From Eubacteriales bacterium (GTDB taxonomy: Bacteria > Bacillota > Clostridia > Oscillospirales > CAG-272): DNA of 64,000 bases. The DNA lies in contig JAZNZB010000020.1 in NCBI GenBank assembly GCA_045594705.1, positions 4,451 to 68,450 of the forward strand, given 5' to 3'. Under the pieces are notes generated by a model that saw nothing but the letters and a program-made list of their open reading frames with translations, made no database searches and was not told the origin of the DNA. The position numbers and the translations under genes were made by a program. Shown here one piece after another: positions 8,324 to 29,180 of the stretch (position 1 is the stretch's first letter; the number at the start of each line of letters is the position of its first letter).

Positions 8324-8349
8324 GGGCAGGGTTGCGCATCATAAAAGCT

Positions 8350-8392: not shown

Positions 8393-8437
8393 CGCTAATT
8401 TTGCACGCTCATCTCTCAGCCTCTTTTTGCAAGCAAA

Positions 8438-9040: not shown

Positions 9041-9102
9041 ATGTAAGCCCTCCGTTTTGTTGTTACGCTACATTATATCGAGCAAGATGCAATAATATGC
9101 CC

Positions 9103-9657: not shown

Positions 9658-9670
9658 CGTAACCTCCAAA

Positions 9671-10126: not shown

Positions 10127-10127
10127 C

Positions 10128-11261: not shown

Positions 11262-11641
11262 TTCAAAAATTCCTTTGTCATTCCCAAAATTTCATGTATC
11301 AGCGGAAGTGCCTTGAGCACAATTGCAATCTTCCCCGCACTCTCAATGACGGTCGCCAGCCCTCCTTCACCAAAATCGCGGCAGATCCCCGCCCCAAGCG
11401 CACACAAAAGCGAAATACCCAGCCCCGAGAGCAAAATCTCGCCATGCTCGGTCGGCATGCTTTGCTCGGAGATCCCGCGGATCAGGGTAAGGATGGGCTG
11501 CGCTGCACTCAGAATCATGCCAAAGATCAGCAACGTTCCCACGGCACGCACAGGAAAGGCCATTTCCGCACGCCAGGAGCGAAGCAGCCACACAGCCACC
11601 AGGCAAAGCATGGCAATGCCGCAAACCTTGAGCATATCCAT
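11258..11641 (-). CDS. spoIIIAD: Stage III sporulation protein AD
   Basis: ~127-aa polytopic membrane protein. The ATG at 11641 lies 1 nt after the spoIIIAC stop. Confidence 0.8.
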   Translation of the reverse strand: MDMLKVCGIAMLCLVAVWLLRSWRAEMAFPVRAVGTLLIFGMILSAAQPILTLIRGISEQSMPTEHGEILLSGLGISLLCALGAGICRDFGEGGLATVIESAGKIAIVLKALPLIHEILGMTKEFLN

Positions 11642-11642
11642 A

Positions 11643-11837
11643 TCAAAAGCCAAAGGTAGTGTACACCAGCGAGAACAATGCGCCGATCTGCTCGATCAGC
11701 ATCAGCAGCACTACCACAATGCCCGCCACCGTGACCAGTGTTGCCTGCTCATCCCTGCCCGATTTGCTTAAAATCTGCGTGGCAACGGATACTAACAGCC
11801 CCACGCCCGCCACCTTCAAGATCAATCCAACTTCCAT
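11643..11837 (-). CDS. spoIIIAC: Stage III sporulation protein AC
   Basis: 64 aa with two TM helices (MEVGLILKVAGVGLLVSV...). Size and position match SpoIIIAC. Confidence 0.8.
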   Translation of the reverse strand: MEVGLILKVAGVGLLVSVATQILSKSGRDEQATLVTVAGIVVVLLMLIEQIGALFSLVYTTFGF

Positions 11838-11840
11838 GCT

Positions 11841-12317
11841 TCACCACAAAAGGATCACTGCGCCCACGGCGCACAAGATCCAAATCATTCCGTTCGTTCT
11901 GACTCTTGCGGGCAGCTCGCCCTCCAGCTGCATCCGCTTTTGCCGCAAAAGCTCAATGTAATAATCGCACCGCTTGATCTGTTCGTCACGAAAGCCGCCA
12001 CCAAGCCCCTGCCCGAACGCCTGCAGCACGCGATAGGTCTCGGGATCAAGATAGCTTTTGACGTGCGGCAGCAGTGCCTGTACCGAATCTATCTGCCCGG
12101 GGCATCGGCAGTCGGCCAAAATGCCCTTATCCATCTCCAGAAAAATCTGCTCGGCAGGCATGGCATAGCAGTCAATACGACCCTTGATATGGAAGATCAG
12201 CGAGATCAACCCGTCGTGCACCTGCAGTCGCGCACGCTCAAACCGAGCCGCACCAACCGCAAGCCCCACGCCGCTTGCCAGCAGCAAGAGCGCGCCTATA
12301 AGCTTAAATGCAAGCAT
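11841..12317 (-). CDS. spoIIIAB: Stage III sporulation protein AB
   Basis: Start refined to MLAFKLIGALLLL (ATG at 12317), overlapping the spoIIIAA end. N- and C-terminal TM helices flank a soluble domain. Confidence 0.75.
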   Translation of the reverse strand: MLAFKLIGALLLLASGVGLAVGAARFERARLQVHDGLISLIFHIKGRIDCYAMPAEQIFLEMDKGILADCRCPGQIDSVQALLPHVKSYLDPETYRVLQAFGQGLGGGFRDEQIKRCDYYIELLRQKRMQLEGELPARVRTNGMIWILCAVGAVILLW

Positions 12318-14162: not shown

Positions 14163-17100
14163 TCAAAACAGCGGATTTGCCATATTGACGCTGCCGCCCG
14201 TTTTGCCGTTACCGGCCTGCCCTGAGGCATTCGAGCCCTGCACGGTAATCGTGCCGTCCTCGAACAGATACGCGCTGAATTCATAGCCCGCCGCGATATC
14301 CTTGACACCGCCCGACAAAATCTTGGCGGGTGAGCCGGAGGTTGCACTCACGCCTGCCATGGCGTTGCCCATATTGCTGCCATAGCCCCATACAGAGCCA
14401 TCGGTCTTGAGAATGATCATATTGGCATGGTGCAGCACTGCCTTTTTGACGCCACCGGTCAGCTTGACCGCGCCGCCCGCGCCCTGTCCCTGGCCAAAGC
14501 CGTGCAAGGAGCGCCAGCCTGCATAGAACAAGTCGCCGGAGGTGGTCACCAGCACCACCTGGTGCTCGCCCGTGGACATATACGCCACGCCCGCAAGCAG
14601 CTTATGGGGAGAGCTATAACGATCTGCGTCCGTGCCGAACTTTTCCCAACGGTTATCACCCAGCACGTAGCAAACGTTATTGCTATTGGTAAAGAAGGTG
14701 TTCCTGCGTCCTGCTGCAAGCAGCTTGACATCGTTTGCCACGACCTGGAAGGAGGTAGTATGTCCGCCTTCGTTTGCCTTGCCAAGCTGACCGTAGGAAT
14801 TGGAGCCCACGCCCCAAAGCACGCCCTGATCGTCCAATACCAGCATATGGTCGTGACCGACGCTGACATCCACGATCTTGCCGTCAAATTTCACCTTTCC
14901 CGGCTTATCATCCGTAGCCGTACCGTTTCTGCCAAGCTGACCTGCGCTGTTGCTGCCAACCGTATAAAGCTCGCCATCCAGCGTCAGATACGCCATCATG
15001 GTTTGGTTGTTGTTATTTTCGCAGTCGTTGCTGTGACAGACCTCCACCTTGGCCACGTTCGAGGCCACAAGCGTCGGTACTGACACGTTTCCGCTGCCCG
15101 GGATGCCCAGAATTCCGTTCTGATTCATGCCCCAGGCATAAAGCTCACCGTTGGGTGCCAGATAATACGTAGAGTGACCGCTTGCGGTGATACCGCTCTG
15201 CACGCCCGCAACCGTGCCCTGCTGCCCCTGTGCACGGGTATTGATGATGACCGTGCCCGAGCAATCCACTGTAAAGGAAGCACTACTTCCCTGCACGGTC
15301 TGCATCTGGCCCGATACGGGAACAAACATAATTGACGTCACCTCATATCCCGACTTGGGAGTCGCCTTTACAGTAAGAGACAGCGTTTGCGAGTTGCCTT
15401 CAAAGTCGAATTGCTGCCCCGTCTCTGTCACGCTCTGTCCGTTCACGGTCACGTTTGCACGTTCGGGATTATAGGCAACCGTCACGGATTTGTCCATGAT
15501 CACCTCAAGATCCGAAAGAGAGATCCCGAAATGATTGCACAGCATGGACAGCACGTAATCGTTTCTGCTGCGGACAAACTTATACATATTGTCCACCGAG
15601 GCCTGATACTGTGATTTGGAAGCTCCCCAACGCATGCTTTGCAGCTCCAAGAGCGGCTCACGCTCTGCAATCAATGCGTCAAGCTCTGCCTCCAGATATG
15701 CGGGAGTCAGCATATCGTTGACCGTTTTTGCAAAGCGAGAAATGAAGATCTGCTTAAACTCTTGGTTCTTGCAAAGACCGTGCATAATGGTGCCTACCAC
15801 TGTGCCCGTGGAATCGATCCAACCAAAGAAATTTGCCTTTTCCGAGGTATCCGCCCAATGCCCTTCGGGATAAAACGCAATTCCCATGTCCATATCAAGC
15901 AGCGTAAAATACCACTTGGTGTCCATGCCCGAGGGATCGTCCGCTACGCGGTTTTTGAATACCTTGATATTGTTCTCCGGCCAGTCACGCGCATTGAAAT
16001 ACAGGCGCGCGATATACATATCCATAAAGGAATTGATATCCAGGCGGTCGGTCACGTATTTGTAATGCTCCTCGGCTGAAAGATCGTGCGAGCGAATGTA
16101 ATTGACAAGTGCGTTGAATTCATCCGCATCCGCCTGCGTTCCGTCCATGGGAATGAAGGGCGCGCCGGGATCGCCTCCGAGGACAAGGCCGTCATAATCG
16201 CTCTCGATCAGGCCGACGTTTTCCTTATCCACACCAAAGTGCGATTCCACGTATTCGGGGCTGTAACGCTCGCGCGCATTGTAAACACCCCAGAATTCGC
16301 CGTTGATGAACAGAAGCACAGGCACGTACGCCATGGTATAGACGTCCATATCGCGGCAAACTCTTTGCATATACGCGTCACGGATAAAGGAGTCCATGCA
16401 GTCGTTGCCCGAGTTACGGAGCAAAAGACGCGAAAAATCAGTGATGGCGTTTCCATCGTTGTCGCGGGCGTAGCCCTCGAACAGATCGTAATTGAGATCA
16501 CCGTCCGTGCCCACAGCGGTATTGTTGATACCCTTATAGTAAACACGCATCGACTTCATCGGCCAACCCGACGAGCCGTGTCCGCTGATGGCAAGCTCTA
16601 CGTAGGACGAGCCATGACGCTGTCCGTCGGACGAGAACACCTCCAGCATGCCTGTCTGACGCTGGTTTCCCGTACCGCCCGTTCCGTAATAATGGTTATA
16701 AAAGCCCTGACTTCCATAGATCAGATTTTTATCCATGGACAAGGACATCATACTCACACCGTAGTCCTTGAAGGTATCGGAAATAAAGTACGTATTGGTA
16801 AAGACATCGGTAGAGTCTGTGCCGTTGGTCGCGTACGCCTTGATGACGTAGCCACCCGGCATCGTTTTACTCTGCGGGCGGTAGTCGCCGCCCATATTCT
16901 GAATTGCACCGTTGATCGTCCCACCCCAGGCCATTTCCGAGGAATCCGTCAACGAAATGGATGAGGAATAGACTTTTCCGTTCTTGACAGGATCGGTGCC
17001 GTCGGTCGTATAATAAACGGTATAGCCCTCACGTGCGCTCAGTTCAAGCTCAAAGCCCTTGGAATAAATACCCGCATCGGCCGAAAACAGCACCTCGTTG

Positions 17101-17936
17101 ACCTTGGAACCCAAGACAGTATTTGCGCCCTTGGAGCTCTCGGGGCAGGTCTGAGTCAGCTTTGCGGTGGTCGCCTGGGCCAGATTGACCTTGTGGAAGC
17201 CGCTGTAATGCTTCAGCGCGGTACGCACCGCAACCTTACTCTTGGACATATTGTCCACGGCAAAATGCGCATCATAGCCAAGCTCGGCCGCAACGAAACA
17301 GGACACCGTACCACTGATATCCTCCACAGCGCAATCCTCGTCGATCTCTTGCCCGCTCGGTGCAAGCGCAAGCTGGATATCCTTATTATCCAGAATGACC
17401 GCCCACTCGGCATCATACGACTCGATGGACAGCACGGCAAACGAAGGGTCGTACGCCTGCGTGCCCTCTCTGGCCTCGGCCATGCGGATCAGATAATATC
17501 CGCCCGCCTCGATGACGGCGTCCTCGGCAAAGGTAAACTGACGGTAGCCCTCCCCCGCGCTCTCGCGGTAATACAGAGCGGCATCCTTGAGCGAAACCTG
17601 CTCTTCTCCAACGTTATACAGCTGAATAAAGCCATGAGCAACGGCAGCATCCTTGTTCTGACCCGTGCCGTACACGGCAGAGATCATAACGTCCTTGAAC
17701 GTGACCGCGATCTCATAGGTGGGATCGTCGGGATCCAGCATACTGTCATCCGTGGTTTGCTCCTCGCCCGGGTTATACTCCCCGGGGCGTGTGATCAGCT
17801 CCTCGGGGTCAGAGGTCGAATCCTCTGTGGAGGATTCGGGTGGCGTGTTATTTCGGCAGGCGGCAAATGCGCCCGCCAGTAACGTCAAAGTCAATAAAAA
17901 TGATAAAACGGTGCGGAAGGATATTCTATTTTTCAC
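14163..17936 (-). CDS. Large multidomain lipoprotein: lamin-tail-like domain, Fn3-associated domain, CotH kinase-like domain and C-terminal RCC1-like repeats
   Basis: 1257 aa. GTG start with AGGAGG 9 nt upstream. Lipobox ...GAFAAC. CotH-like block LLLRNSGNDCMDSFIRDAYMQRV...INGEFWGVYNARERY. The C-terminus has repeated YAWG.N..GQLG-type RCC1 blades. Confidence 0.85.
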   Translation of the reverse strand: MKNRISFRTVLSFLLTLTLLAGAFAACRNNTPPESSTEDSTSDPEELITRPGEYNPGEEQTTDDSMLDPDDPTYEIAVTFKDVMISAVYGTGQNKDAAVAHGFIQLYNVGEEQVSLKDAALYYRESAGEGYRQFTFAEDAVIEAGGYYLIRMAEAREGTQAYDPSFAVLSIESYDAEWAVILDNKDIQLALAPSGQEIDEDCAVEDISGTVSCFVAAELGYDAHFAVDNMSKSKVAVRTALKHYSGFHKVNLAQATTAKLTQTCPESSKGANTVLGSKVNEVLFSADAGIYSKGFELELSAREGYTVYYTTDGTDPVKNGKVYSSSISLTDSSEMAWGGTINGAIQNMGGDYRPQSKTMPGGYVIKAYATNGTDSTDVFTNTYFISDTFKDYGVSMMSLSMDKNLIYGSQGFYNHYYGTGGTGNQRQTGMLEVFSSDGQRHGSSYVELAISGHGSSGWPMKSMRVYYKGINNTAVGTDGDLNYDLFEGYARDNDGNAITDFSRLLLRNSGNDCMDSFIRDAYMQRVCRDMDVYTMAYVPVLLFINGEFWGVYNARERYSPEYVESHFGVDKENVGLIESDYDGLVLGGDPGAPFIPMDGTQADADEFNALVNYIRSHDLSAEEHYKYVTDRLDINSFMDMYIARLYFNARDWPENNIKVFKNRVADDPSGMDTKWYFTLLDMDMGIAFYPEGHWADTSEKANFFGWIDSTGTVVGTIMHGLCKNQEFKQIFISRFAKTVNDMLTPAYLEAELDALIAEREPLLELQSMRWGASKSQYQASVDNMYKFVRSRNDYVLSMLCNHFGISLSDLEVIMDKSVTVAYNPERANVTVNGQSVTETGQQFDFEGNSQTLSLTVKATPKSGYEVTSIMFVPVSGQMQTVQGSSASFTVDCSGTVIINTRAQGQQGTVAGVQSGITASGHSTYYLAPNGELYAWGMNQNGILGIPGSGNVSVPTLVASNVAKVEVCHSNDCENNNNQTMMAYLTLDGELYTVGSNSAGQLGRNGTATDDKPGKVKFDGKIVDVSVGHDHMLVLDDQGVLWGVGSNSYGQLGKANEGGHTTSFQVVANDVKLLAAGRRNTFFTNSNNVCYVLGDNRWEKFGTDADRYSSPHKLLAGVAYMSTGEHQVVLVTTSGDLFYAGWRSLHGFGQGQGAGGAVKLTGGVKKAVLHHANMIILKTDGSVWGYGSNMGNAMAGVSATSGSPAKILSGGVKDIAAGYEFSAYLFEDGTITVQGSNASGQAGNGKTGGSVNMANPLF

Positions 17937-18133: not shown

Positions 18134-19594
18134 TTATTTTCCGCTCTCCACGATGCCGAAATAATCGCTCAAGAGCTTTTTGAGCTCGGGGAGATCATTC
18201 ATGATGTAGTACTCACAATCGGTTTGCAAGGGATTGATGCCGTATCCCTGACTGCGCACAATGACCGCATTCATATTGCAATACGCGGCATTCATCACGG
18301 TATAGCACATGCTGACCGAATCCTCGTTGGGATTGACCTTGGAAATCAGCGTATCGATCGCGGGTGTGGTGTGGTTGGCTGCCAGCACCGAGAGCACGTT
18401 GAGTGCCATGCCTGCATCTCCCTGCGCGCTGCGCGGGATACTCAACACTGTTCCGTCGTCAAAGGTGGAATGATATCCAAGCTCCTTATTATACATAGGC
18501 ACAGGCGCAACACACACCTCAAACTCGGATTTTGTGATCATGGCGCCGCTGCCGTCAAGTCCCGTAAAATGATCCAGCTCGGTTGCAAAGAACAGAGATC
18601 TTCCCTTCATGAACAGCTGCTCTGCCACCGCACTCTCGCGGGTCACGTTGCGGTATTCCGCCAGCCACTGTGCAAGCTCCACGCAAGTGCGATAGGTCTG
18701 CTCACCGGTGCTCTCTTCTGCAAACAGATCCACGCCACTGCCGTAAAACAGCGTATCTGCGCAGCCGTACTCGTCGTACATCGCGCCCCAGAAATCGTCG
18801 TCACTCCAGGTGCCGTCACCGTTGAGATCGGTTTTCACCTGTGTGCACAGCTCGTAAAAGAGCTCCATGGTCCATGCGTTTCCATATACGGTCTGAGTCA
18901 AGTCAAAGCCCATCTCGCGCATTTTTTCGTTGTTATAAACCAGGCAATCCAGCTCAAACTGCGCATATGGGGTCAGATATCCGGTAAAGACGTACTGCTT
19001 GCCGTTGATCTTCAGATCCTCGTTGAGTGCGTCAAACCAGCAGCCGTTATCCATCTCGAAGCCTGCCAGCGTCCCTGCGCTGTGGAATGCTCCGGTCATG
19101 GCGATATCCGCAATGCAGGAAACGGGGGTATAGCACAAAATCAGCGTTCCCGTGCCTGCCGTGGTTTCACTCAGGGCAATTTCAAAAATATCGGTCGTGG
19201 TCGGCGTGTACTTATGGTTGACTGCATATCCGTACAGATCCATAAATTGCTGATCTCTTGCCAGCACCGACTCATCGATGATCAAGGGCTCATAGGTATC
19301 CGAAGAGGGCTCGTTTTGCAAAAGCTCAAGGATCAGAACGTCGGTTTTGAGATCAAGGCTGTCGGGGAAGCCGTAAAGCTCCTCGCCCGGGCCCATTGTC
19401 ACGGGGAACTCCTGCTCGGGGGGCTGCTCCACAGGCGGAATGGGATAGAACGGATCCACGTCCACACCGGGCAGATCCAGCTTTCCAAGCAGCTCGCCAA
19501 CAAGACCGCCGGCTTCAAAATCCGCAAAGCCGCATGCCGTCAGCGCACACGTAAGCATCAGGCACAAAAGCGCGATCGCAATTCTTTTCTTCAT
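18134..19594 (-). CDS. Solute-binding-protein-like lipoprotein, paralog A1
   Basis: Lipobox LTACG. Shares CxFADFE.GGLVGELLG with A2, plus a DLNGDG motif and overall similarity to the B paralogs. Resembles large LplA/YtcQ-type family-1 SBPs (judged by eye). Confidence 0.7.
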   Translation of the reverse strand: MKKRIAIALLCLMLTCALTACGFADFEAGGLVGELLGKLDLPGVDVDPFYPIPPVEQPPEQEFPVTMGPGEELYGFPDSLDLKTDVLILELLQNEPSSDTYEPLIIDESVLARDQQFMDLYGYAVNHKYTPTTTDIFEIALSETTAGTGTLILCYTPVSCIADIAMTGAFHSAGTLAGFEMDNGCWFDALNEDLKINGKQYVFTGYLTPYAQFELDCLVYNNEKMREMGFDLTQTVYGNAWTMELFYELCTQVKTDLNGDGTWSDDDFWGAMYDEYGCADTLFYGSGVDLFAEESTGEQTYRTCVELAQWLAEYRNVTRESAVAEQLFMKGRSLFFATELDHFTGLDGSGAMITKSEFEVCVAPVPMYNKELGYHSTFDDGTVLSIPRSAQGDAGMALNVLSVLAANHTTPAIDTLISKVNPNEDSVSMCYTVMNAAYCNMNAVIVRSQGYGINPLQTDCEYYIMNDLPELKKLLSDYFGIVESGK

Positions 19595-19613
19595 AAGCAG
19601 ATTCTCCTTGGGC

Positions 19614-21209
19614 TCAATTTGTCACGTTCTCCATTTGCGCACAGAACTTATCAAGCTGCTTTGCAAACGATTTCTCGAATTTCTTCCAAACCGAGCTGAG
19701 CGAAGAGTTACCATTCTCCAACGCAGTGCGGAACAGCATGACCTTCTCACTATCCGTGGTAGCCATGTAATTGCAACCGAAATCAAAGGTCTTGGTCTCC
19801 AGGATCAGCTGCAGCATTTCGGTATCCTCCGGGGTAGCGCAGATGCGCATGGAGAGATCAAAATCATACAAGCCCTGGTTCAGCTGAGCCATAGCCTCCA
19901 GCGCATATCCCACAAACTCCTGATCGTGCGCGCTCTGCGGCACCATCACCGCCGTCGCGTTGCAATCCACGTAAGAGCGATAGTCCTTTACGTCCAGATC
20001 CGCCTTGGGATACGGAATGATTCCGAATTGCCCGGATGCGATGGCCATATTCATTGCCTTCTCCAGCGTTGCACCATAGAACAGTGCTCTGCCATCCGCA
20101 AAGGCCTTCTCGGGAACTTGCAGGCGGTCATAATCCTGCATGACGTCATTCATTGTAACCCATACCGACGCAGCGTTGTTGACCATGCTGTAAAGCACGT
20201 CGTACGGCCACGAGATCTGATCCATATTGGTATTGATCACGGGGATCTGCGCATCGTCCTTGACAAGCATGGACACGCCCGCACCCGTTGCAAAGGCTTG
20301 TGCACCATCAAACGTAGAAACGTAAGCGAACAGATCCGCGTCGGGATCCACCACAGCATTGTTGTTGAGATCCTCGTAGTTGTTCTCCACCATGGCAAGC
20401 ATCTTTTCCATGGTCCAGCCGCCTTCCATCACGTAGCTGTACATATCGATCTGATGTTGCGCGGCAAGATCGACGTTATACAGGATGACCGAGGTCTTGA
20501 GCATAGCGTCGGGCGTGATCACGCCTGTTGCCATGGGCAAATACGAGCCGAATGCCAGACCGTTGTATATATCCTCATCCCAACGGTCATTCGTCAGATC
20601 CACCCAAGGAAGGCCGGACAGATTGACCAAAGAACCGTTCTGCGCCAAGGGCGCGCCATCGCGGGCAATTGATCCGAATACGATATCAAAGCTTCCTTTA
20701 CCGGACATCACGTCGTTGCGCACCTGATCGTAAAGCAGGTCCTGCTCTATCAGAACGCCGTCTATTTCAATGCCGTAATAAGCCGTCACGACCTGATTGC
20801 GCGCATACGAAGCATCCGCTACGATATTGTCGCTTCTTTCTGCTCCAAGATCGTGCTCATGAATGCCAAGCAGCGTCAGTCTCTGGTCGGAATACCGATC
20901 CATGGGCAGCTCGACCCAAGGGCCGTCGGTCTCGATTTCCACGTACGTGACGTCCTCTGTCGCGATTTCAGTCTCGTCCCACCAGATATGATCGGTTCCC
21001 CAATCCACGTCGGTCACAATTTCTCCGATATTGACGTCTGTTTCGGCAATTCCCGGCTCGATCTCACCAAGGATATCTTCACCAGGCAGATCGATATTTC
21101 CAAGCAACTCGCCCACAAGCCCTCCGATTTCAAAATCAGCAAAGCTGCAAGCGGTCATTGCACAGGTCAGTGTCAAGCACAAAAGTGCGATCGCAAGTCT
21201 CTTTTTCAT
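19614..21209 (-). CDS. Solute-binding-protein-like lipoprotein, paralog A2
   Basis: ATG at 21209 is preceded by AGGAGG (the track start is a TTG 6 nt upstream). Lipobox MTACS. 19-nt gap to A1, so the two are probably co-transcribed. Confidence 0.7.
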   Translation of the reverse strand: MKKRLAIALLCLTLTCAMTACSFADFEIGGLVGELLGNIDLPGEDILGEIEPGIAETDVNIGEIVTDVDWGTDHIWWDETEIATEDVTYVEIETDGPWVELPMDRYSDQRLTLLGIHEHDLGAERSDNIVADASYARNQVVTAYYGIEIDGVLIEQDLLYDQVRNDVMSGKGSFDIVFGSIARDGAPLAQNGSLVNLSGLPWVDLTNDRWDEDIYNGLAFGSYLPMATGVITPDAMLKTSVILYNVDLAAQHQIDMYSYVMEGGWTMEKMLAMVENNYEDLNNNAVVDPDADLFAYVSTFDGAQAFATGAGVSMLVKDDAQIPVINTNMDQISWPYDVLYSMVNNAASVWVTMNDVMQDYDRLQVPEKAFADGRALFYGATLEKAMNMAIASGQFGIIPYPKADLDVKDYRSYVDCNATAVMVPQSAHDQEFVGYALEAMAQLNQGLYDFDLSMRICATPEDTEMLQLILETKTFDFGCNYMATTDSEKVMLFRTALENGNSSLSSVWKKFEKSFAKQLDKFCAQMENVTN

Positions 21210-21242
21210 ACGCAAGGCCTCCTTTGTTCGGTCTTTGATTTT

Positions 21243-21271
21243 ATTTTAGCAGATTTTTCCCGATTTGTAAA
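21243..21271 (-). promoter_or_regulatory. Sigma-A-type promoter for the A2-A1 lipoprotein pair
   Basis: On the minus strand: TTTACA, 17 nt, TAAAAT. Confidence 0.5.
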
Positions 21272-21312
21272 TAGAAATAATATACCCTTTACTTATATAG
21301 ACGCCAAAAATG

Positions 21313-21350
21313 CAAAAAGGTTCCGCGAAATCAAGAAAAATTTCGCGGAA
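21313..21350 (-). terminator. Terminator after the metallophosphoesterase gene
   Basis: TTCCGCGAAAT-8 nt-ATTTCGCGGAA, an 11-bp stem followed on the minus strand by CCTTTTTGC. Confidence 0.6.
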
Positions 21351-21404
21351 TCTTGAAAAATTTTCAATTTGCGGGGCATTATCATGAAGTTAAGTAGCAA
21401 AGGT

Positions 21405-21528
21405 GTCCCGCCTCAAGATCCTTCGCGGCGCATTTTTTCGCAAGCTCCGTACAGCGGAGCAATTCATCCTCGAGCGCAGCGAAGGATCTTGGCGAAAAAT
21501 GCTTGCTCAAGGATGACAGAGGCGGGAC
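21405..21528. repeat. Second copy of the long palindromic element core (homologous to 7921..8056)
   Basis: Arms GTCCCGCCTC...GAGGCGGGAC. Shares AAGATCCTTCGCGGCGCATT, AAGCTCCG...AGCGGAG and ATGCTTGCTC.AGGATGACAG.GGCGGGA with copy 1. The left flank, 21371..21404, also resembles the outer arm of copy 1. Confidence 0.8.
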
Positions 21529-21542
21529 AGGGCTTTCTTGAC

Positions 21543-22370
21543 TCAGTCACATGGATTTGCGGGAATCAGCGTGATCTTGCGCGAGATACCGAGGTACGCG
21601 CCACCTGTGATATACTGCACAAGCCCGGGGGCAAGCTCGTCCTCGTGCGAAAAATGCAAGTGCCCCGCGATCACAGCGGCAATGCCCGACGCGGGATCGC
21701 GTACGTACTCGCAAAACGCCGCCGTTGCCTCGTTTTTGAGGATCGCACCGGGGCCTATGTTGATATTTCTGCGCCAATCGCGCACCGTATCGTCATGCAG
21801 CGAAGGGCAATTGATGGGAATATGCACGCAAAGCAGGATCGGCTTGCCCTTCTCTCTCAATTCCTTCAGAAAATCAATATCTTCTTGCTGCACGCACTCC
21901 ATGCCGTCGTCGATACCCGCCACGATCAGATCGGGATACTCCAGATAGTGCCGCGCGACCGCACCGTCCGAAAGTGCTGTAAACTTGCCATAGTGCTGCG
22001 CTCTTGCCCCCTCGGTATGATAATCGTCCGAATACGACCAATCGTGATTGCCTATGACAAACATGGTCCCCAGGCCGCCTGCCCCGATCTCGCGATACAA
22101 ATCGCGCACATTTGGGTCGCTTGGCGTATCCACAATATCCCCGGTCATGAGCATCAGATCTGCGCCCCATTCGCGCGCATCGGCATAAAAGCCCTGCAGT
22201 CTTTTCACACAAGGCGTGCCGTCGGTTTCAAAAATACATCTTGCACGCAAGGCCGCCTCGTCGTGGCGAAACTGCGGGTCATTCTCGCCCATCCCCGTCA
22301 GATGCAGATCGGTGATATGATACAGCTTGTACGTATGCCGTAAGCCCTTGATGGCAATGGTGGTTTCCAT
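21543..22370 (-). CDS. Calcineurin-like metallophosphoesterase
   Basis: Start refined to METTIAIKG (ATG at 22370, AGGAG upstream). Motifs ITDLHL, GDIVD, GNHDW and GHLH. Confidence 0.8.
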   Translation of the reverse strand: METTIAIKGLRHTYKLYHITDLHLTGMGENDPQFRHDEAALRARCIFETDGTPCVKRLQGFYADAREWGADLMLMTGDIVDTPSDPNVRDLYREIGAGGLGTMFVIGNHDWSYSDDYHTEGARAQHYGKFTALSDGAVARHYLEYPDLIVAGIDDGMECVQQEDIDFLKELREKGKPILLCVHIPINCPSLHDDTVRDWRRNINIGPGAILKNEATAAFCEYVRDPASGIAAVIAGHLHFSHEDELAPGLVQYITGGAYLGISRKITLIPANPCD

Positions 22371-22380
22371 ATGCTTCTCC

Positions 22381-22662
22381 TTAGCCGAACGAGAGTCGAA
22401 CCAAGTTGGTTTTGACGGGCAGATTTGTCCGATCCCTTCATCTTTTCCCTTGGACATATTGCCTATATGCCCCGCGGGAAAAGCTTTTGGGCTCGAAAAA
22501 ATCTGCTGCGTCAAAACTGCTCGCACCCGTCGGCGAATGCATTTTTGATAGATTTTGGTGTGATTTTGCGCAGCAAGATACAAATCTTGCAAGCGAAAGC
22601 GCGCCGAAAGATGCGAAAATGCATCGTCGTCGGGCAATTCGGTTCGATTCCCGTTCGGCTAA
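22381..22662. mobile_element. MITE-like 282-bp element with 22-bp terminal inverted repeats and no ORF
   Basis: Left TTAGCCGAACGAGAGTCGAACC and right GGTTCGATTCCCGTTCGGCTAA pair at 20 of 22 positions. The interior is full of short hairpins. It fills the gap between the B1 stop and the metallophosphoesterase RBS. Confidence 0.45.
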
Positions 22663-22709
22663 ACAAGAGGCTACCCTTGCGGATAGCCCCTGTTTGCTTG
22701 CGTTTTCAA

Positions 22710-24179
22710 TTAGTAATCGTAGCCGTAAGCCTCGTAGATTTTTTTCAGAGCCTTATTGGTCTGCTTTTCGCTCGTGGTAATGTCTCTGGTGATAGAGGCA
22801 CTCTTGTTGTTGAGCGCGGTCTGAGCGATGGATGCGCAAGGCAGGCCGTCGTTGTGGAAGTGGGTATAGCCAAAGTCGAATACTCTGTGACGAATGATGA
22901 CGTCAACCATCTCAGCGGACTCCTCGTCACGTGCGTTCTTGGACTTAGCAACCTTATCATACAACGTATCGGATACCATGTAGTAAGAGGTGGAAGCCAG
23001 AACCTCCAGCATGTAGCCGGCGTCTGCCAGAGCCTCCTCGGAAAGGCTCTTGGGTACGCATGCGGTGGAAGCTGCACCGTTGACAAAGCTCAGGTACTCT
23101 TCCTGCTTCTCGTCGTACTTGGGCTGAGGCAGAATACCGAACTCATTCTCCATCTCACGGAAACCCGTGCAATCGGACAGGGAGCCTGCAAAGAACAGCG
23201 CTCTGCCTGCCTTGAATACGTTCGCGGGCTCCTGATACATCGAGTTGTTTGCAAGGTACTCGTTAACGGTTACGTGGAAGGACTGCTGGGTCACGATCAG
23301 CTCGTAGATCTTTTCGTAAACGGTCTGCAGTCTGTCGGTATTGGGCTGGTATACGGGCAGGTGGTCCTCGTCAAAGGTGAACATGGTGCAGCCTGCACCG
23401 AACCAGAAGTTGTAGTCGCATGCCAACGACCAACCTACAAGACCGTAGAAGTCGTCGGTGTAGTTGACTTTACCGTCACCGTTGAGGTCACGGGTCTGAT
23501 CCTTGGTGATTTCCAGCATGTCATCAATGGTCCAAGTGCCGTCTCTTGCATCATCGTAGGGATAATCAAGGCTTTGCTCGTCGAACAGGGACTTGTTGAA
23601 AATCATGGCAGCGGTAATCATCATGGAGGAAGGCAGCAGGTCGCCGCACACCACGAACATGTTGTCACCGAACATAAAGCCGTTCTTGCAGTCCTGGTCC
23701 CACCAAGGGTTGTCAAAGTTGACGTACTCCAGGTCGGTCAGGTTATACAGGCAGTTACCCATACCCAGGTTGGTAGCAGCGTTTACCATGTGCTGGTAAA
23801 CGATGTGGTATTCACCACTACCGGAGCTGACGTCGTTCTTGACCTTGTCGCCAAGTGCAACGTAGTCAAGCTCAAGCAGAGGATTGAGCGTTACACCGTA
23901 GAAGTTCTGGATCTTGTCGTTTCTTCTGTAAACGGCGTCCTCCAGGGGGTCGGATTTGTCCGGCTCCTCTGCGCCCATATCGGTCTCGGAGTTTGCAAGA
24001 ATATTGATCTCCTTGCCCTTCAGACCCTCGTTGGGCTCCAGATCGGGGCTGACCCAGTTGGTCTCTTCCTCGGTGGAGGCATCGGTAGAGGTATCCTCAT
24101 TCCCCGTCTCCGCACAAGCAGCGAACACACTGATCAGCATCAGGCCGCACAAAAGCATAGCGAAAAGCTTCTTGTACAT
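22710..24179 (-). CDS. Solute-binding-protein-like lipoprotein, paralog B1
   Basis: 489 aa. Lipobox VFAACAE. Motifs WWDQDCKNGF and DLNGDGK. Has its own promoter and terminator. Nearly identical to B2. Confidence 0.75.
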   Translation of the reverse strand: MYKKLFAMLLCGLMLISVFAACAETGNEDTSTDASTEEETNWVSPDLEPNEGLKGKEINILANSETDMGAEEPDKSDPLEDAVYRRNDKIQNFYGVTLNPLLELDYVALGDKVKNDVSSGSGEYHIVYQHMVNAATNLGMGNCLYNLTDLEYVNFDNPWWDQDCKNGFMFGDNMFVVCGDLLPSSMMITAAMIFNKSLFDEQSLDYPYDDARDGTWTIDDMLEITKDQTRDLNGDGKVNYTDDFYGLVGWSLACDYNFWFGAGCTMFTFDEDHLPVYQPNTDRLQTVYEKIYELIVTQQSFHVTVNEYLANNSMYQEPANVFKAGRALFFAGSLSDCTGFREMENEFGILPQPKYDEKQEEYLSFVNGAASTACVPKSLSEEALADAGYMLEVLASTSYYMVSDTLYDKVAKSKNARDEESAEMVDVIIRHRVFDFGYTHFHNDGLPCASIAQTALNNKSASITRDITTSEKQTNKALKKIYEAYGYDY

Positions 24180-24224
24180 ACTTGTTTCCTTCTTTCATAA
24201 TATTTTGCATAGGTATACGCATTC

Positions 24225-24253
24225 ATTTTATCACAAGAGTAAATTGTTGTCAA
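24225..24253 (-). promoter_or_regulatory. Sigma-A-type promoter for B1
   Basis: On the minus strand: TTGACA, 17 nt, TGaTAAAAT. Confidence 0.6.
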
Positions 24254-24326
24254 GGAAAAAGTCATTGATTGTCAAGAAAAGAGTCATTGATTGTCAAGAA
24301 AAGAGTCAATAATTGACAAGAATAAT
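24245..24326. repeat. About 3.5 tandem copies of a 22-bp unit upstream of B1, each carrying a TTGACAA box on the minus strand
   Basis: GTCATTGATTGTCAAGAAAAGA occurs at 24261..24282 and 24283..24304. Diverged copies lie at 24245..24260 and 24305..24326. Confidence 0.8.
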
Positions 24327-24356
24327 TTCGGCCACATTTTGTGCAATTTGACACAA

Positions 24357-24386
24357 ACAAAAAGAAACCCGCACGTGGCGGGTTTC
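24357..24386 (-). terminator. Terminator after B2
   Basis: GAAACCCGC-loop-GCGGGTTTC, followed on the minus strand by TTTTTGTTTG. Confidence 0.7.
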
Positions 24387-24408
24387 TTGGTGGGTATTCG
24401 AATATCAA

Positions 24409-25878
24409 TTAGTAATCGTAGCCGTATGCCTCGTAGATCTTTTTCAGAGCCTTATTGGTCTGCTTTTCGCTCTTGGTAATGTCTCTGGTGATAGAGGCAC
24501 TCTTGCTGTTGAGCGCGGTCTGAGCGATGGATGCGCAAGGCAGGCCGTCGTTGTGGAAGTGGGTATAGCCAAAGTCGAATACTCTGTGACGGATGATGAC
24601 GTCAACCATCTCAGCGGACTCCTCGTCACGTGCGTTCTTGGACTTAGCAACCTTATCATACAGCGTATCGGATACCATGTAGTAAGAGGTGGAAGCCAGA
24701 ACCTCCAGCATGTAGCCGGCGTCTGCCAGAGCCTCCTCGGAAAGGCTCTTGGGTACGCATGCGGTGGAAGCTGCGCCGTTGACAAAGCTCAGGTACTCTT
24801 CCTGCTTTTCATCATACTTGGGCTGAGGCAGGATACCGAATTCGTTCTCCATCTCGCGCAGACCCGTACCTGCGGACAGGTAGCCTGCAAAGAACAGTGC
24901 TCTGCCTGCCTTGAATACGTTGGTGGGCTCGGTGTACATGGAGTTGTTGGCCAGGTACTCCTGAACGGTCACGTGGAAGGACTGCTGAGTTACGATCAGC
25001 TCGTAGATCTTATCGTAGACGGTCTGCAGTCTGTCAGCGTTAGGCTGGTATACGGGCAGGTGATCCTCGTCAAAGGTGAACATGGTGCAGCCTGCGCCGA
25101 ACCAGAAGTTGTAGTCACAGTCGAGCGACCAGCCTACAAGGCCGTAGAAGTCGTCGGTGTAAAGTACCTTACCGTCACCGTTGAGGTCACGGGTCTGGTC
25201 CTTGGTCATCAGCAGCATGTCGTCGATGGTCCAGGTGCCGTCTCTTGCATCCTGGTAAGGATACTCAAGGCTCTGCTCGTCGAACAGATTCTTGTTGAAC
25301 ATAACGGCAGCGGTGATCATCATAGAGGAAGGCAGCAGGTCGCCGCAGACCACGAACATGTTGTCACCGAACATAAAGCCGTTCTTGCAGTCCTGGTCCC
25401 ACCAGGGGTTGTCAAAGTTGACGTACTCCAGGTCGGTCAGGTTATACAGGTTGCCACTGGTACCAAGGTTGGTAGCAGCGTCTACCATGTGCTGGTATAC
25501 GATGTGGTATTCACCACTGCCCGAGGTAACGTCGTTCTTGACCTTAGTGGAAAGTGCAGTGTAATCGGTCTCTGTGAGCGCATTGAGAGTCACGCCGTAG
25601 AAGTTTTGGATTTTGTCGTTTCTTCTGTAAACGGCGTCCTCCAGGGGATCGGATTTGTCCGGCTCTTCTGCACCCATATCGGTCTCATTCTGTGTAAGGA
25701 TGTTGATCTCCTTGCCCTTCAGACCCTCGTTGGGCTCCAGATCGGCACTGACCCAGTTGGTCTCTTCCTCGGTGGAGGCATCGGTAGAGGTATCCTCATT
25801 CCCCGTCTCCGCACAAGCAGCGAACACACTGATCAGCATCAGGCCGCACAAAAGCATAGCTAAAAGCTTCTTGTACAT
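24409..25878 (-). CDS. Solute-binding-protein-like lipoprotein, paralog B2 (recent duplicate of B1)
   Basis: 489 aa, same length and frame as B1. About 37 aa differences by manual alignment, clustered in the first two thirds. The last ~150 aa differ at only 2 positions. Confidence 0.75.
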   Translation of the reverse strand: MYKKLLAMLLCGLMLISVFAACAETGNEDTSTDASTEEETNWVSADLEPNEGLKGKEINILTQNETDMGAEEPDKSDPLEDAVYRRNDKIQNFYGVTLNALTETDYTALSTKVKNDVTSGSGEYHIVYQHMVDAATNLGTSGNLYNLTDLEYVNFDNPWWDQDCKNGFMFGDNMFVVCGDLLPSSMMITAAVMFNKNLFDEQSLEYPYQDARDGTWTIDDMLLMTKDQTRDLNGDGKVLYTDDFYGLVGWSLDCDYNFWFGAGCTMFTFDEDHLPVYQPNADRLQTVYDKIYELIVTQQSFHVTVQEYLANNSMYTEPTNVFKAGRALFFAGYLSAGTGLREMENEFGILPQPKYDEKQEEYLSFVNGAASTACVPKSLSEEALADAGYMLEVLASTSYYMVSDTLYDKVAKSKNARDEESAEMVDVIIRHRVFDFGYTHFHNDGLPCASIAQTALNSKSASITRDITKSEKQTNKALKKIYEAYGYDY

Positions 25879-25923
25879 ACTTGTTTCCTTCTTTCATAAT
25901 ATTTTGCATAGGTATACATTTAC

Positions 25924-25952
25924 ATTCTACCACAAGAGGCTGTTCTTGTCAA
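25924..25952 (-). promoter_or_regulatory. Sigma-A-type promoter for B2
   Basis: On the minus strand: TTGACA, 17 nt, TGgTAGAAT. Confidence 0.6.
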
Positions 25953-25993
25953 GAAAAATTTTCATCCCCGATTTTGTGCAGATTGACAAAGGC

Positions 25994-26026
25994 AAAAATC
26001 GAAGCCTGCACCGCGGTGCAGGCTTC
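25994..26026 (-). terminator. Terminator after B3
   Basis: GAAGCCTGCACC-gc-GGTGCAGGCTTC, a 12-bp stem followed on the minus strand by GATTTTT. Confidence 0.7.
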
Positions 26027-26045
26027 TCTTCTTTGTTTCGTTTTA

Positions 26046-27521
26046 TCAGTCGTCGTAGCCGTAAGCCTCCAGAATCTTATCCAGTTCCTTTCGGGTATTC
26101 TTTTGCGAATTGGTCAGATCTCTGACGATCGAGGGACGCTTATCCTGCAGCGCAACCATGACAATATTGGAGCACGGCAGATTCTTGTGTGAGAAATGCA
26201 GATAACCGAAATCAAAGACTTTGTGACGGATGATGATGTCCACCATTTCGGCAGACTCCTCGTCGCGCGCGTTCTTGGACTTGGCGATCACGTCGTACAG
26301 CGTATCCGTTACCATATAGTAAGACGAGGACGCCAGCGCCTCCATCATAAAGCCGGTGGTCTCCAGCTTTTGCTCGGACAGGCTGACGGGGACGATCGCG
26401 ATGCTTGCAGCCGCGTTGACAAAGCCGAGATAATCCTTTTGCGATTCGTCATACTTGGGCTGCGGCAGGATGCCGTAGTCGTCGATCATGTCACGCAGAT
26501 TGGTGGTGATGGACAGATTGGTGGGAAACAGCAGCGCGCGTCCGTCACGGAACACCTCAATGGTGCCGAAATACAGATTGTTGTCCTTGAGATACTCGTT
26601 ATAGGTCAGATGGTAGGTATCGGGAGAAAGCAGCAGCGCGGAGGTCTTCTCGTAGATCGACTGCAGCTTATCGGTGTCGGGGGCAAAGGTGGGAATATGC
26701 TGATCATCGTAGGTGAACATGGTCGCGCCCGCACCGTAAAAGAAGTTATAATCGCAGTCCAGTGCCCAAGAGGTAATGCCGAAGAAATCGTCGGTATACA
26801 AAATCTTGCCGTCACCGTTAAGGTCCTTGGCCTGGTCCTTGATCATTCCCTGCATATCGTCCATGGTCCACGTGCCTGCTCTGGCGTCGTCGTAGGGGTA
26901 TTCCCAGCCGCGCTCATCAAACAGGTTCTTGTTGAACAGCACCGAGCCCGTGATCAGCTGCGTCGTGGGGATCAGGTCGCCGCAGGCCATCATCATATGA
27001 TCGCCGATGGCAAGACCGTTCTTGCAGTCCTGGTCCCACCAGGTCTGATCAAAGTCCACGAACTCCAGCTCGGACAGATCGTACAAATAGCCGCCCAGGG
27101 CGAGATTGTACGCAGCGTTGCCCATATGCTGATACACCAGATTGAATTCACCCGTTCCCGCAGCCGTATCGTTCTTGATCGCATCCGCGATCACGTCAAG
27201 GCTGGGCTCGTCGGCATTATTGAATTTGATCCCGTATTCTGTCTGCAGTCGGTCGTTTCTGCGGTACACCGCATCCTCAAGCGGATCGGACGAATTCTCC
27301 TCCGGACCAATATCATATCTGCTTTGCGCCAAAATGACGAACTCCTGCCCCGCAAGCGGCGTTTCAAGCTTGGAGGGATCCAGCGTCTCTGCAACCCATT
27401 GCTCTTTTTCCTCGGTTATCTCCGAGGACTGCTGCTCGTTTTCCCCTTGCGCGCAGCCCGCAAGCAAGCCCACAAGCATCAAAGCACTCAAAAGAAAACA
27501 CAAAATTCTGTCTTTCATCAT
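26046..27521 (-). CDS. Solute-binding-protein-like lipoprotein, paralog B3
   Basis: Start at ATGATGAAAGAC after a GAGG RBS. Lipobox LLAGCAQ. Shares the WWDQDCKNG, DLNGDGKI and KSKNARDEESAEMVD blocks with B1, B2 and B4. Confidence 0.75.
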   Translation of the reverse strand: MMKDRILCFLLSALMLVGLLAGCAQGENEQQSSEITEEKEQWVAETLDPSKLETPLAGQEFVILAQSRYDIGPEENSSDPLEDAVYRRNDRLQTEYGIKFNNADEPSLDVIADAIKNDTAAGTGEFNLVYQHMGNAAYNLALGGYLYDLSELEFVDFDQTWWDQDCKNGLAIGDHMMMACGDLIPTTQLITGSVLFNKNLFDERGWEYPYDDARAGTWTMDDMQGMIKDQAKDLNGDGKILYTDDFFGITSWALDCDYNFFYGAGATMFTYDDQHIPTFAPDTDKLQSIYEKTSALLLSPDTYHLTYNEYLKDNNLYFGTIEVFRDGRALLFPTNLSITTNLRDMIDDYGILPQPKYDESQKDYLGFVNAAASIAIVPVSLSEQKLETTGFMMEALASSSYYMVTDTLYDVIAKSKNARDEESAEMVDIIIRHKVFDFGYLHFSHKNLPCSNIVMVALQDKRPSIVRDLTNSQKNTRKELDKILEAYGYDD

Positions 27522-27552
27522 AAACCTCACTGTTTTCGGTATTTATACGAAT

Positions 27553-27581
27553 ATCATATCACATACCTTGCCATCTGTCAA
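27553..27581 (-). promoter_or_regulatory. Sigma-A-type promoter for B3
   Basis: On the minus strand: TTGACA, 17 nt, TGaTATGAT. The -35 box abuts the B4 hairpin. Confidence 0.55.
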
Positions 27582-27612
27582 GAGAGCCGGGTCATGTGTG
27601 ACCCGGCTCTCT
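27581..27612 (-). terminator. GC-rich 14-bp hairpin after B4 (terminator or stabiliser; no clear U-tract on the minus strand)
   Basis: AGAGAGCCGGGTCA-tgtg-TGACCCGGCTCTCT. Confidence 0.45.
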
Positions 27613-27635
27613 TTATATTTGATTTATTCGGTTGA

Positions 27636-29117
27636 TCAATCGTAGCCGTAAGCTCTCAGAATCTTCTTGAGTTCGTTTCTGGTTCTTCTTTCGGAGTTGG
27701 TGATCTCCTTGACGATCGAGGTTCTGTTTGCCTGCAGCGCGGTCTGTGCAACGTTGAAGCAGGGGAAATCCTGACCGGAGAAATGCGAATAGCCAAAGTC
27801 AAACACCTTGTGACGGATGATGATATCCACCATTTGTGCAGATTCCTCATCACGAGCGTTCTTGGACTTGGCCACAACGTCGTAAAGGGTATCCGTGGTC
27901 ATGTGATAGGATGCGGACGCCAGTGCTTCCATCATAAAGCCTGCGACCTCCAGATTGGCATCACTCAGGCTGCCCGGCACGCACGCCATGCTTGCGCTGC
28001 CGTTGACAAAGCCGAGGTAATCCTCCTGCTTTTCGTCATACTTGGGGTTGGGCAGGATGCCGTAGTCGTCCACCATATCACGCAAAGAGGTGGTGGTGGA
28101 CAGGTAGGTCGGGAAGAACAGTGCTCTGCCGTCTCTGAATACGTCGATGGTCTTGTTGTACATGCCCGGATCTGTTTCGAACTGTGCCCAGATCACGTGG
28201 AAGGAATTCTGCGTAATCAGCAGTGCGTAGATCTTTTCGTAAATTGCCTGCAATCTGTCGGTGTCGGGATCAAATACGGGCAGGTGGTCCTCATCGTAGG
28301 AGAACATGGTCGCGCCCGAGCCGAAGAACAGATTGAAGTCCGCGTCTGCCGCCCATGCGGTCACACCGAAGAAATCGTCATCGTGGAAGATCTTGCCGTC
28401 ACCGTTGAGGTCCTTGGTCTGATCCTTGGTCAGCTCCAGCATATCGTCCATGGTCCAGTTCCCTTCCCGTGCGTCCTCGTAGGGGTAATCCCAGCCGTTG
28501 CGGTCGAACAGGTTCTTGTTAAACAGAACCGTTGCGGTGATCAGCATCGTCGAGGGCAGCAGGTCGCCGCACACCATCATCATGCTGTCGCCGATGACAA
28601 AGCCCTTCTTGCAATCCTGGTCCCACCACTCGTTATCAAAATTGACGTATTCCAGATCGGTCAGGTTATACAGATAATTGCCGGGAGCCAAGCTGCGCGC
28701 TGCCTCGATCATGTGCTGATACACGATGTGGAATTCACCCGTGCCCGCGGTCACGTCGTTTTTGACGTTGGTGGAAATGATATTGAAATCGGACTGATAC
28801 TGATTGTTGAATTCAATGCCCAGCTCAGCCTTGAGCTTGTCGTCTCTTCTGTAAACGGCATCCTCAAGCGGGTCGGACGAGTTTTCCTCGGGGCTGATAT
28901 CGTACTTATTGTACGCCAGAATATTGACCTGCTGTCCACGCAGGCTGACACTCAGCTTCTCGGGATCCAGCTCAGGGTTCATCCAATACGTTTCCTCTTC
29001 GGTAACGCCCTGGGAGCCTTCCGGGGTCTCTCCCTGATCGGGCTTATCCACGCAGCCTGCAAGCACAGCAAGCAGCATAAGCATACCGAGAAGGATGCAT
29101 ATGAGTCTGATCTTCAT
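27636..29117 (-). CDS. Solute-binding-protein-like lipoprotein, paralog B4
   Basis: ATG at 29117 follows a GAGG RBS (the track start is a TTG). Lipobox LAGCVD. Same conserved blocks as B1-B3. Confidence 0.75.
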   Translation of the reverse strand: MKIRLICILLGMLMLLAVLAGCVDKPDQGETPEGSQGVTEEETYWMNPELDPEKLSVSLRGQQVNILAYNKYDISPEENSSDPLEDAVYRRDDKLKAELGIEFNNQYQSDFNIISTNVKNDVTAGTGEFHIVYQHMIEAARSLAPGNYLYNLTDLEYVNFDNEWWDQDCKKGFVIGDSMMMVCGDLLPSTMLITATVLFNKNLFDRNGWDYPYEDAREGNWTMDDMLELTKDQTKDLNGDGKIFHDDDFFGVTAWAADADFNLFFGSGATMFSYDEDHLPVFDPDTDRLQAIYEKIYALLITQNSFHVIWAQFETDPGMYNKTIDVFRDGRALFFPTYLSTTTSLRDMVDDYGILPNPKYDEKQEDYLGFVNGSASMACVPGSLSDANLEVAGFMMEALASASYHMTTDTLYDVVAKSKNARDEESAQMVDIIIRHKVFDFGYSHFSGQDFPCFNVAQTALQANRTSIVKEITNSERRTRNELKKILRAYGYD

Positions 29118-29151
29118 TTGCAAAACCTCTCTTTAGTATAGAATTACCTGT

Positions 29152-29180
29152 ATTTTACCACTTTCACCCGAAATTGTCAA
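29152..29180 (-). promoter_or_regulatory. Sigma-A-type promoter for B4
   Basis: On the minus strand: TTGACA, 17 nt, TGgTAAAAT. Confidence 0.6.

Follow-up and report, generated by a model that had tools for sequence, protein, structure and literature searches.

How do substrate-binding lipoproteins operate when they are encoded without the membrane components of a transporter? This question is raised by a minus-strand array at positions 18134-29123 of a 64,000-nucleotide (nt) stretch of DNA from a Eubacteriales bacterium (contig JAZNZB010000020.1; hereafter the window, meaning the whole stretch that was analysed), in which open reading frame (ORF) calls delineate six homologous lipoprotein genes, A1, A2 and B1-B4 (Table 1). 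The initial annotation of this DNA had described six paralogous lipoprotein genes on this strand, and had suggested that their products, resembling the substrate-binding proteins (SBPs) of ATP-binding cassette (ABC) importers, might be repurposed for something other than import. The six genes are indeed there, and all are homologous by BLASTP; the repurposing is not established. The reading that we favour, with a probability of about 0.6, is that they encode orphan carbohydrate SBPs sharing a translocator encoded elsewhere.

The first point to settle is the protein class. In all six array proteins a signal peptide or hydrophobic leader is followed by a lipobox cysteine, and the lipoboxes listed earlier (LTAC, MTAC, FAAC twice and LAGC twice) were all found in this position. 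When the six proteins were scanned against Pfam, B4 (33 bits) and B2 (30.6 bits) scored above the SBP_bac_8 gathering score of 27, and A1 remained below it (21.6 bits); A2, B1 and B3 gave no direct Pfam match and are homologous to B2 and B4 at E⩽1e-50. Matches to SBP_bac_8 or SBP_bac_1 at E⩽0.01 were obtained for 11 of 23 close family members and for 11-15 of 55 wider members. We modelled B4 with AlphaFold2 from an alignment of 23 sequences (predicted local distance difference test, pLDDT, 87.6; predicted template-modelling score, pTM, 0.83). The model starts with a leader, passes into an acidic stretch that is disordered (residues 21-44) and ends in a body of alternating alpha/beta structure; the acidic linker that follows the lipid-anchor cysteine spans about 25-40 residues before the two-lobed binding domain begins. 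Foldseek retrieved 836 PDB matches to this model at E⩽1e-3, the best 50 of which are SBPs or maltose-binding protein fusion constructs, with T. maritima MalE1/2, UgpB, Lmo0181, AbnE, RafE and GltA leading. Since the model is confident and these matches agree with it, we take the SBP fold to be settled, in line with the profile search that the initial annotation had called for. The modelled body has the two alpha/beta lobes and hinge of the periplasmic-binding-protein type II fold, and on this model the array proteins are family-1, carbohydrate-class (MalE/UgpB-like) substrate-binding lipoproteins.

Within this class the array proteins stand well apart. The solved SBPs of the CUT1 family, namely MalE1 and MalE2 of T. 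maritima (6dtu, 6dts), UgpB of E. coli (6x84), AbnE of G. stearothermophilus (6rjy), RafE of S. pneumoniae (2hq0) and Lmo0181 of L. monocytogenes (5f7v), show the same two-lobed fold as the B4 model (Foldseek E~1e-11 to 1e-13, probability 1.0), and the lipoprotein anchor of the window proteins is typical of Gram-positive SBPs. However, the window proteins are ~100 residues longer than these solved SBPs, with only 11-17% identity and template-modelling (TM) scores of 0.45-0.55, and thus form a distant subfamily. When the PDB was searched by sequence and by profile, the only match was a marginal one to AbnE (E 0.06-0.12), with which the window proteins have a TKD-x-NGDGK loop in common. Scans against NCBIfam and PHROGs returned nothing useful for the six SBPs or for the adjacent C-family proteins described below. 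The LplA/YtcQ likeness put forward in the initial annotation is not supported, since DUF3502 was matched neither in the six proteins (E⩽1) nor in the 23 or 55 family members (E⩽0.01), and the resemblance comes down to a length of ~500 amino acids (aa).

The six proteins differ considerably in their mutual relatedness. B1 and B2 are 92% identical in protein (BLASTP) and 91% in nucleotide sequence, with near-identical 5′ leaders, and B1 is to all appearances a recent duplicate of B2. B3 and B4 are 63% identical, and the B1/B2 pair shares 55-57% identity with B3/B4 (BLASTP). A2 matches B1-B4 at E=1e-50 to 1e-60 (28-29% identity), and A1 matches A2 at E=4e-28 and B1-B4 at 1e-12 to 1e-15; against the family hidden Markov model (HMM) the scores are 431 bits for A1 and 809 bits for B3. 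The blocks WWDQDCK, DLNGDGK and KSKNARDEESA, which had been taken as common to all six proteins, hold for B1-B4, where the B4 variant of the last reads ...ESAQMVD; a motif check of the six proteins did not find the exact blocks in A1 or A2. A1 and A2 carry instead a segment FADFE-GGLVGELLG-DLPG directly after the lipobox cysteine, which recurs in the distant members P0374 and P0398 (CDLQSGGLLGALL, CDMEFGGLVGELLG), and in its place the B-type proteins have the acidic low-complexity linker.

With the class of the proteins in hand, a transporter partner was sought. Loci were scanned for permeases with an EAA loop, polytopic ORFs, and ATPases with Walker A and LSGGQ motifs; as a control, the detector recovered MalF, MalG and MalK in E. 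coli and at least one permease of each pair in the Butyrivibrio operon described below. Pfam scans of 40 further ORFs of the window revealed no BPD_transp_1 permease, importer ATPase or glycoside hydrolase, which agrees with the earlier statement that no permease or ATPase partner is encoded in the 64 kb. The case named there as refuting, cognate permeases lying just outside, did not materialize either, as no MalF/G-type permease was detected in close relatives within ~10 kb beyond each window end, where the only ABC component was one GntR-linked ATPase whose neighbours have no Pfam match on record. Next to the family genes of ~140 loci (~1.5 Mb), drawn from the ruminant-gut clade and from a distant branch represented in JGI metagenomes, again no MalF/G-type permease was found. 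The arrangement is that of orphan SBPs, encoded away from transporter genes, and not that of a complete CUT1 importer, in which an SBP gene adjoins two BPD_transp_1 permease genes. Several candidates were discarded on inspection: the 'TM5+' ORFs that were checked run antisense to SBP or other genes, and a gene of ~730 aa near one locus type, combining a membrane domain with ABC_tran, lies ~5 kb off, with unrelated genes between, and lacks BPD_transp_1.

The window covers nearly all of a 68,454-bp contig, and many of the related contigs are short, so that nearby permease genes might only seem to be absent because of the fragmentation or mis-binning of metagenome-assembled genomes (MAGs). We consider this extremely improbable, since contigs of up to 182,924 and 768,850 bp, with 10-kb flanks on both sides, give the same picture, none of the 24 distant loci of at least 10 kb contains a permease, and the synteny from ftsY through the C array, the SBP array and the CotH gene to spoIIIA is continuous and conserved. 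The orphan status is thus robust in both sampled branches, the ruminant-gut clade and the one distant metagenome branch.

If no permease is encoded nearby, what ties these proteins to import? A more distant family member, the only match among annotated plasmid and chromid records, is a 501-aa SBP of Butyrivibrio fibrisolvens (WP_073386918.1, pNP243), which reaches 152 bits with the family HMM and 26% identity to B4 over 68% of its length. It has the same ~500-aa architecture as the window SBPs, and its operon is of the permease-permease-SBP-SBP type: immediately before it come two genes annotated 'sugar/carbohydrate ABC transporter permease' and after it a second SBP gene, partners that the window genes lack. 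Since this member sits in a permease operon, the subfamily descends from real transporter SBPs, whose conserved blocks it has kept. In the ruminant clade, furthermore, a 370-aa ATPase with ABC_tran, OB_MalK and TOBE_2 domains, 67-68% identical to ugpC of Monoglobus/Subdoligranulum, is encoded ~5 kb from one family paralog (full length in loci L029, L031 and L033; partial at the contig end in L027, L028 and L030); no such MsmX/UgpC-type ATPase was seen in the window. ATPases of the MalK/MsmX/UgpC type work with MalF/G-type permeases, and because the clade keeps one, at least one permease pair should exist in its genomes. Neighbours of the family genes are often carbohydrate enzymes (GH2, GH3 and GH43 glycoside hydrolases and sugar-isomerase-like TIM barrels): the paralog near the ATPase gene has a xylose-isomerase-like TIM barrel within ~10 bp downstream (seven loci) and then a GH2 beta-galactosidase (three loci), and distant relatives (25% identity) adjoin or follow GH43 genes. 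TIM barrels, CBM9 and GH43 also recur among the neighbours in the census described below.

Each SBP has an export signal, a lipobox for lipid anchoring at the cysteine, an acidic tether and a MalE-type binding domain; on the favoured reading, this domain would close on an oligosaccharide at the cell surface. The oligosaccharide would then be handed to a MalF/G-type permease pair encoded elsewhere in the genome and powered by the stand-alone MsmX/UgpC-type ATPase, with several binding proteins using one or few translocators in common. Tandem duplication, within B1-B4 and A1-A2, may either diversify specificity or boost capture and dosage. Because each B gene has a strong sigma-A promoter of its own, high-level production of the B proteins, controlled apart from the membrane components, would be possible.

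A number of points weigh against this proposal. The shared translocator is something that we infer and have not observed: no MalF/G-type permease turned up in 924 kb of ruminant-clade loci plus the window, nor any permease in 594 kb from 79 loci of the distant branch (24 of them at least 10 kb long). BPD_transp_1 was also not a recurrent family in a Pfam census of 134 neighbouring or multi-transmembrane ORFs from 46 loci, where the recurrent families were AP_endonuc_2 (6), URO-D (5), CBM9 (3), GH43, AraC, Lgt (2) and exporter-type ABC_tran/ABC_membrane. These loci are redundant, with a few locus types standing for ~15 genomes, and each genome is sampled only to a small extent. A typical CUT1 system has its SBP and permeases co-encoded, and so consistent a separation is unusual. 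The main array itself, finally, lies among surface and envelope proteins (the C family and CotH/RCC1) and not among sugar genes.

These points bear on a different explanation, namely that the SBP fold has been kept and the transporter role lost, the proteins now serving in surface glycan capture or adhesion for nearby enzymes, or in ligand sensing through a membrane partner. The lack of a permease beside any of the ~140 loci, in two separate lineages, would fit such a role, as would the predicted surface proteins on both flanks of the main array (the C-terminally anchored C family and the 1257-aa CotH/RCC1/LTD protein) and the position of a second paralog type after a type IV pilus-like cluster and a 1300-aa Flg_new_2 protein. 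A signalling partner such as a sensor kinase or chemoreceptor beside the SBP genes, however, was neither found in the window nor recurrent in the locus contexts or the census, a single Trans_reg_C gene lying several kb from an SBP gene in L002. The strong individual promoters suggest abundant surface proteins, but a real importer, too, normally has abundant SBPs that are transcribed separately. Copy number varies between close strains, with five B-type genes in L010 against four here; on the other hand, the motif blocks found also in the Butyrivibrio relative with its linked permeases have been preserved, an importer ATPase of the MsmX type is kept in the clade near one paralog, and the cytoplasmic-type GH2 and sugar isomerase beside a paralog imply that sugar enters the cell. 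With the precedent of orphan SBPs added to these observations, we regard a role beyond import as unlikely.

A bolder version, to which we give slightly less credence still, is that the whole, widespread subfamily in gut anaerobes is permanently uncoupled from dedicated permeases, either acting in a Gram-positive glycan capture of the SusD kind or feeding one promiscuous or non-canonical translocator, the tandem arrays then forming the specificity-determining layer of carbohydrate acquisition. If the proteins do work without a permease, the SBP fold would have taken on a new function at the Gram-positive surface, and no finding here requires that.

The arrangement can be compared with known systems. 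In E. coli malEFG, unlike in the window, MalE is co-encoded with the permeases, and those other solved CUT1 SBPs whose operons are known, including UgpB, are likewise encoded with permeases. Orphan SBPs whose transporter is encoded elsewhere are described as a common occurrence in the passage of PMC3223731 that cites Thomas 2010 ('Homes for the orphans'); RPA2014 of R. palustris, with potHI elsewhere, is an example in which the SBP gene lies apart from the translocator, as here. For the orphan and multi-SBP importers of that account, several SBPs are presumed to act on one membrane complex, as we propose. The present case differs from the orphans as presented there in that every sampled member of the subfamily is separated, in at least 15 genomes and a second lineage, and in the arrangement of the genes in tandem, each with a strong promoter of its own. 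A parallel for the energizing component comes from streptococci, in which one monocistronic MsmK energizes several CUT1 permeases (PMC3302838); the ATPase gene of this clade likewise looks monocistronic and stands apart from any permease. In streptococci, uncoupling is confined to the ATPase, and SBP and permeases remain together, whereas here the SBPs are uncoupled too. We conclude that the array is a lineage-specific orphan-SBP expansion from a true transporter family and not a new type of system; the orphan arrangement itself is known, and it is unusually consistent across this subfamily.

The subfamily is large. In a word-indexed search, B4 had only 168 relatives and A2 only 30. All come from uncultured Clostridia, and those that bear a source name are called 'extracellular solute-binding protein', 'hypothetical protein' or, in one JGI entry, a glycerol-3-phosphate transport SBP. 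Close relatives occur in ~15 MAGs (species-representative genomes), most of them from sheep, yak or cattle gut and the remainder bearing no more than the label Eubacteriales, Oscillospiraceae or uncultured Clostridium; the closest of them (97% identity) is the sheep-colon MAG RGIG5376. Family genes number at least 3-8 per MAG and fall into about four locus types that are conserved. Since the RGIG5376 locus (L010, 9992-20709) has its fifth B-type gene and B1 and B2 are 91% identical in nucleotide sequence, array copy number is changing between close strains. An exhaustive profile search gave 10,042 cluster representatives at E⩽1e-3 and 4,693 at E⩽1e-30, and the best 150 of these matches are nearly all full length (~480-510 aa); for the metagenome scan of the distant branch, a 10-sequence subset of the alignment served as query. 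In a 55-sequence sample the lipobox cysteine is invariant, and the blocks NDAVYxRN, WWDQ, DLNGDG, GRALF, DFGILPxPKxDExQ and RDxESxxMLD are shared. In the literature we found general background on orphan SBPs and nothing on this SBP family, which is a new, poorly annotated branch of a well-known protein class. With thousands of clusters poorly captured by Pfam and NCBIfam, the subfamily would be better annotated with a dedicated profile. If the shared-translocator reading is true, sugar specificity in these organisms is set by modular, fast-evolving binding proteins and not by complete transporter operons, and operon-based annotation pipelines underestimate or mis-assign sugar uptake in uncultured ruminant-gut Clostridia.

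The transcription signals of the array were also examined (Table 1). Promoter matches were scored as positions out of 12, with a spacer of 17 and any upstream TG noted; 17 promoter-like sites were found across the region, compared with 10.4 ± 3.5 in shuffles. As had been pointed out in the initial annotation, each of B1-B4 is preceded by its own near-consensus promoter, TTGACA-17-TGnTAnnAT, which we score at 11 of 12 positions in all four cases, and the clear terminators after B2 and B3 and the B4 hairpin without a U-tract were likewise recovered by scan or inspection. The B1 hairpin is a putative intrinsic terminator of moderate strength. The CotH gene also has an 11/12 promoter site (18028-18000). 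Since A2 lies upstream of A1 with a gap of 19 nt, the two are probably co-transcribed.

Table 1. Positions of the array genes and of the signals and repeat around them in the window
Feature	Position	Strand	Description
A1	18134..19594	-	Predicted SBP-fold lipoprotein, 486 aa, lipobox LTAC; most divergent paralog
A2	19614..21215	-	Predicted SBP-fold lipoprotein, 533 aa from TTG, 531 from next ATG; lipobox MTAC
Promoter-like site, A2-A1 unit	21243..21271	-	TTTACA-17-TGcTAAAAT, 10/12, TG present
Metallophosphoesterase gene	21543..22370	-	Between A and B groups; calcineurin-like; Pfam Metallophos 3e-11; terminator 21350-21321 after
Hairpin after B1	22659..22690	-	8-bp stem, GCAA loop, then TCTTGTTT; read from sequence
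B1	22710..24179	-	Predicted SBP-fold lipoprotein, 489 aa, lipobox FAAC
B1 promoter	24225..24253	-	TTGACA-17-TGaTAAAAT, 11/12, TG present
Tandem repeat	24235..24322	-	Period 22 bp, 4.0 copies, 86% matches; each unit with a TTGACA/TTGTCA box
Intrinsic terminator after B2	24362..24388	-	11-bp stem, 6 GC pairs, tail TTTGTTTG
B2	24409..25878	-	Predicted SBP-fold lipoprotein, 489 aa, lipobox FAAC
B2 promoter	25924..25952	-	TTGACA-17-TGgTAGAAT, 11/12, TG present
Intrinsic terminator after B3	26001..26026	-	11-bp stem, 7 GC pairs, tail GATTTTTG
B3	26046..27530	-	Predicted SBP-fold lipoprotein, 494 aa from GTG start, lipobox LAGC
B3 promoter	27553..27581	-	TTGACA-17-TGaTATGAT, 11/12, TG present
Hairpin after B4	27580..27613	-	15-bp palindromic GC-rich stem, without U-tract
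B4	27636..29123	-	Predicted SBP-fold lipoprotein, 495 aa from TTG, 493 from ATG at 29117; lipobox LAGC; protein modelled
B4 promoter	29152..29180	-	TTGACA-17-TGgTAAAAT, 11/12, TG present

Two details of the intergenic regions deserve mention. The −35 box (TTGACA) of the B3 promoter forms the end of the 3′ arm of the B4 hairpin, an overlap of promoter and terminator-like elements (27553-27613). The 22-bp repeats precede and overlap the B1 promoter and were not found in the B2 upstream region, despite the near-identical B1 and B2 leaders; they may represent a stack of −35 elements or a series of binding sites for a regulator.

The other window ORFs covered by the Pfam scans represent a spore-former housekeeping set (spoIIIA, smc, ftsY, rnc, topA, dprA, lon and scpAB), and the order ftsY-Ham1-nadD...C array-SBP array-CotH/RCC1-spoIIIA is conserved in relatives. 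The metallophosphoesterase ORF between the A and B groups runs to 22637 (364 aa), but orthologs align only from about residue 87, that is, over the last ~278 aa, and the true start is therefore probably a Met near 22370, leaving a gap of ~340 nt after B1. The gene is kept at the same position in at least eight genomes (L010, L011, L013, L014, L017, L021, L026 and L034). Downstream of the array, the minus-strand gene at 14163-17936 encodes a 1257-aa secreted protein with lamin-tail (LTD), Fn3_assoc/CHB_HEX_C and CotH kinase domains and RCC1 repeats, and its place next to the SBP array is conserved in 12 or more related genomes.

On the other side of the array lie four paralogous minus-strand genes, C1-C4 (29193-35370), encoding proteins of 494-524 aa with 27-31% mutual identity, each consisting of a signal peptide, an ectodomain rich in beta structure and, at the C-terminus, a membrane helix with a basic tail. 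The C family has no Pfam or NCBIfam match, and its more than 250 homologs in Clostridia, where named by their sources, are all 'hypothetical'. Could these proteins act with the SBP lipoproteins in a novel surface complex of two parts? All main-array loci sampled in the ruminant clade have C genes immediately upstream of the SBP array and in the same orientation, and a second, separate locus type pairs a single SBP gene with a single C gene that follows it (L041, L043, L044 and L052). The pairing is clade-specific, however: the 79 loci sampled from the distant SBP branch yielded no C homolog, and distant C homologs in other Clostridia are not beside SBP genes. The sole PDB match of the C AlphaFold2 model (pLDDT 85), a Legionella 'putative nutrient binding protein' (4g2a), would suit such a partnership but is weak (TM 0.25-0.37), and with a single membrane helix a C protein cannot be the permease. 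A two-part complex of this kind is therefore distinctly improbable in our view. One of the distant C homologs ends a run of genes for an extracytoplasmic function (ECF) sigma factor and proteins of 211 and 113 aa (L059, 6459-9500), which hints that some C-family proteins may belong to sigma/anti-sigma envelope modules.

Two further contexts of family genes were noted. An SBP subgroup at 47-49% identity (L001-L004 and L043, about 1-12000) has a conserved link to a type IV pilus-like cluster, always coming after a prepilin peptidase gene, N_methyl pilin-like genes and the gene for the 1300-aa Flg_new_2 protein, with leuS next. In the distant metagenome locus L089, a 316-aa ORF (8999-9946) with five transmembrane helices directly upstream of a family SBP gene, considered as a candidate permease, proved to be lgt, encoding prolipoprotein diacylglyceryl transferase, the enzyme that lipidates lipoproteins of this sort.

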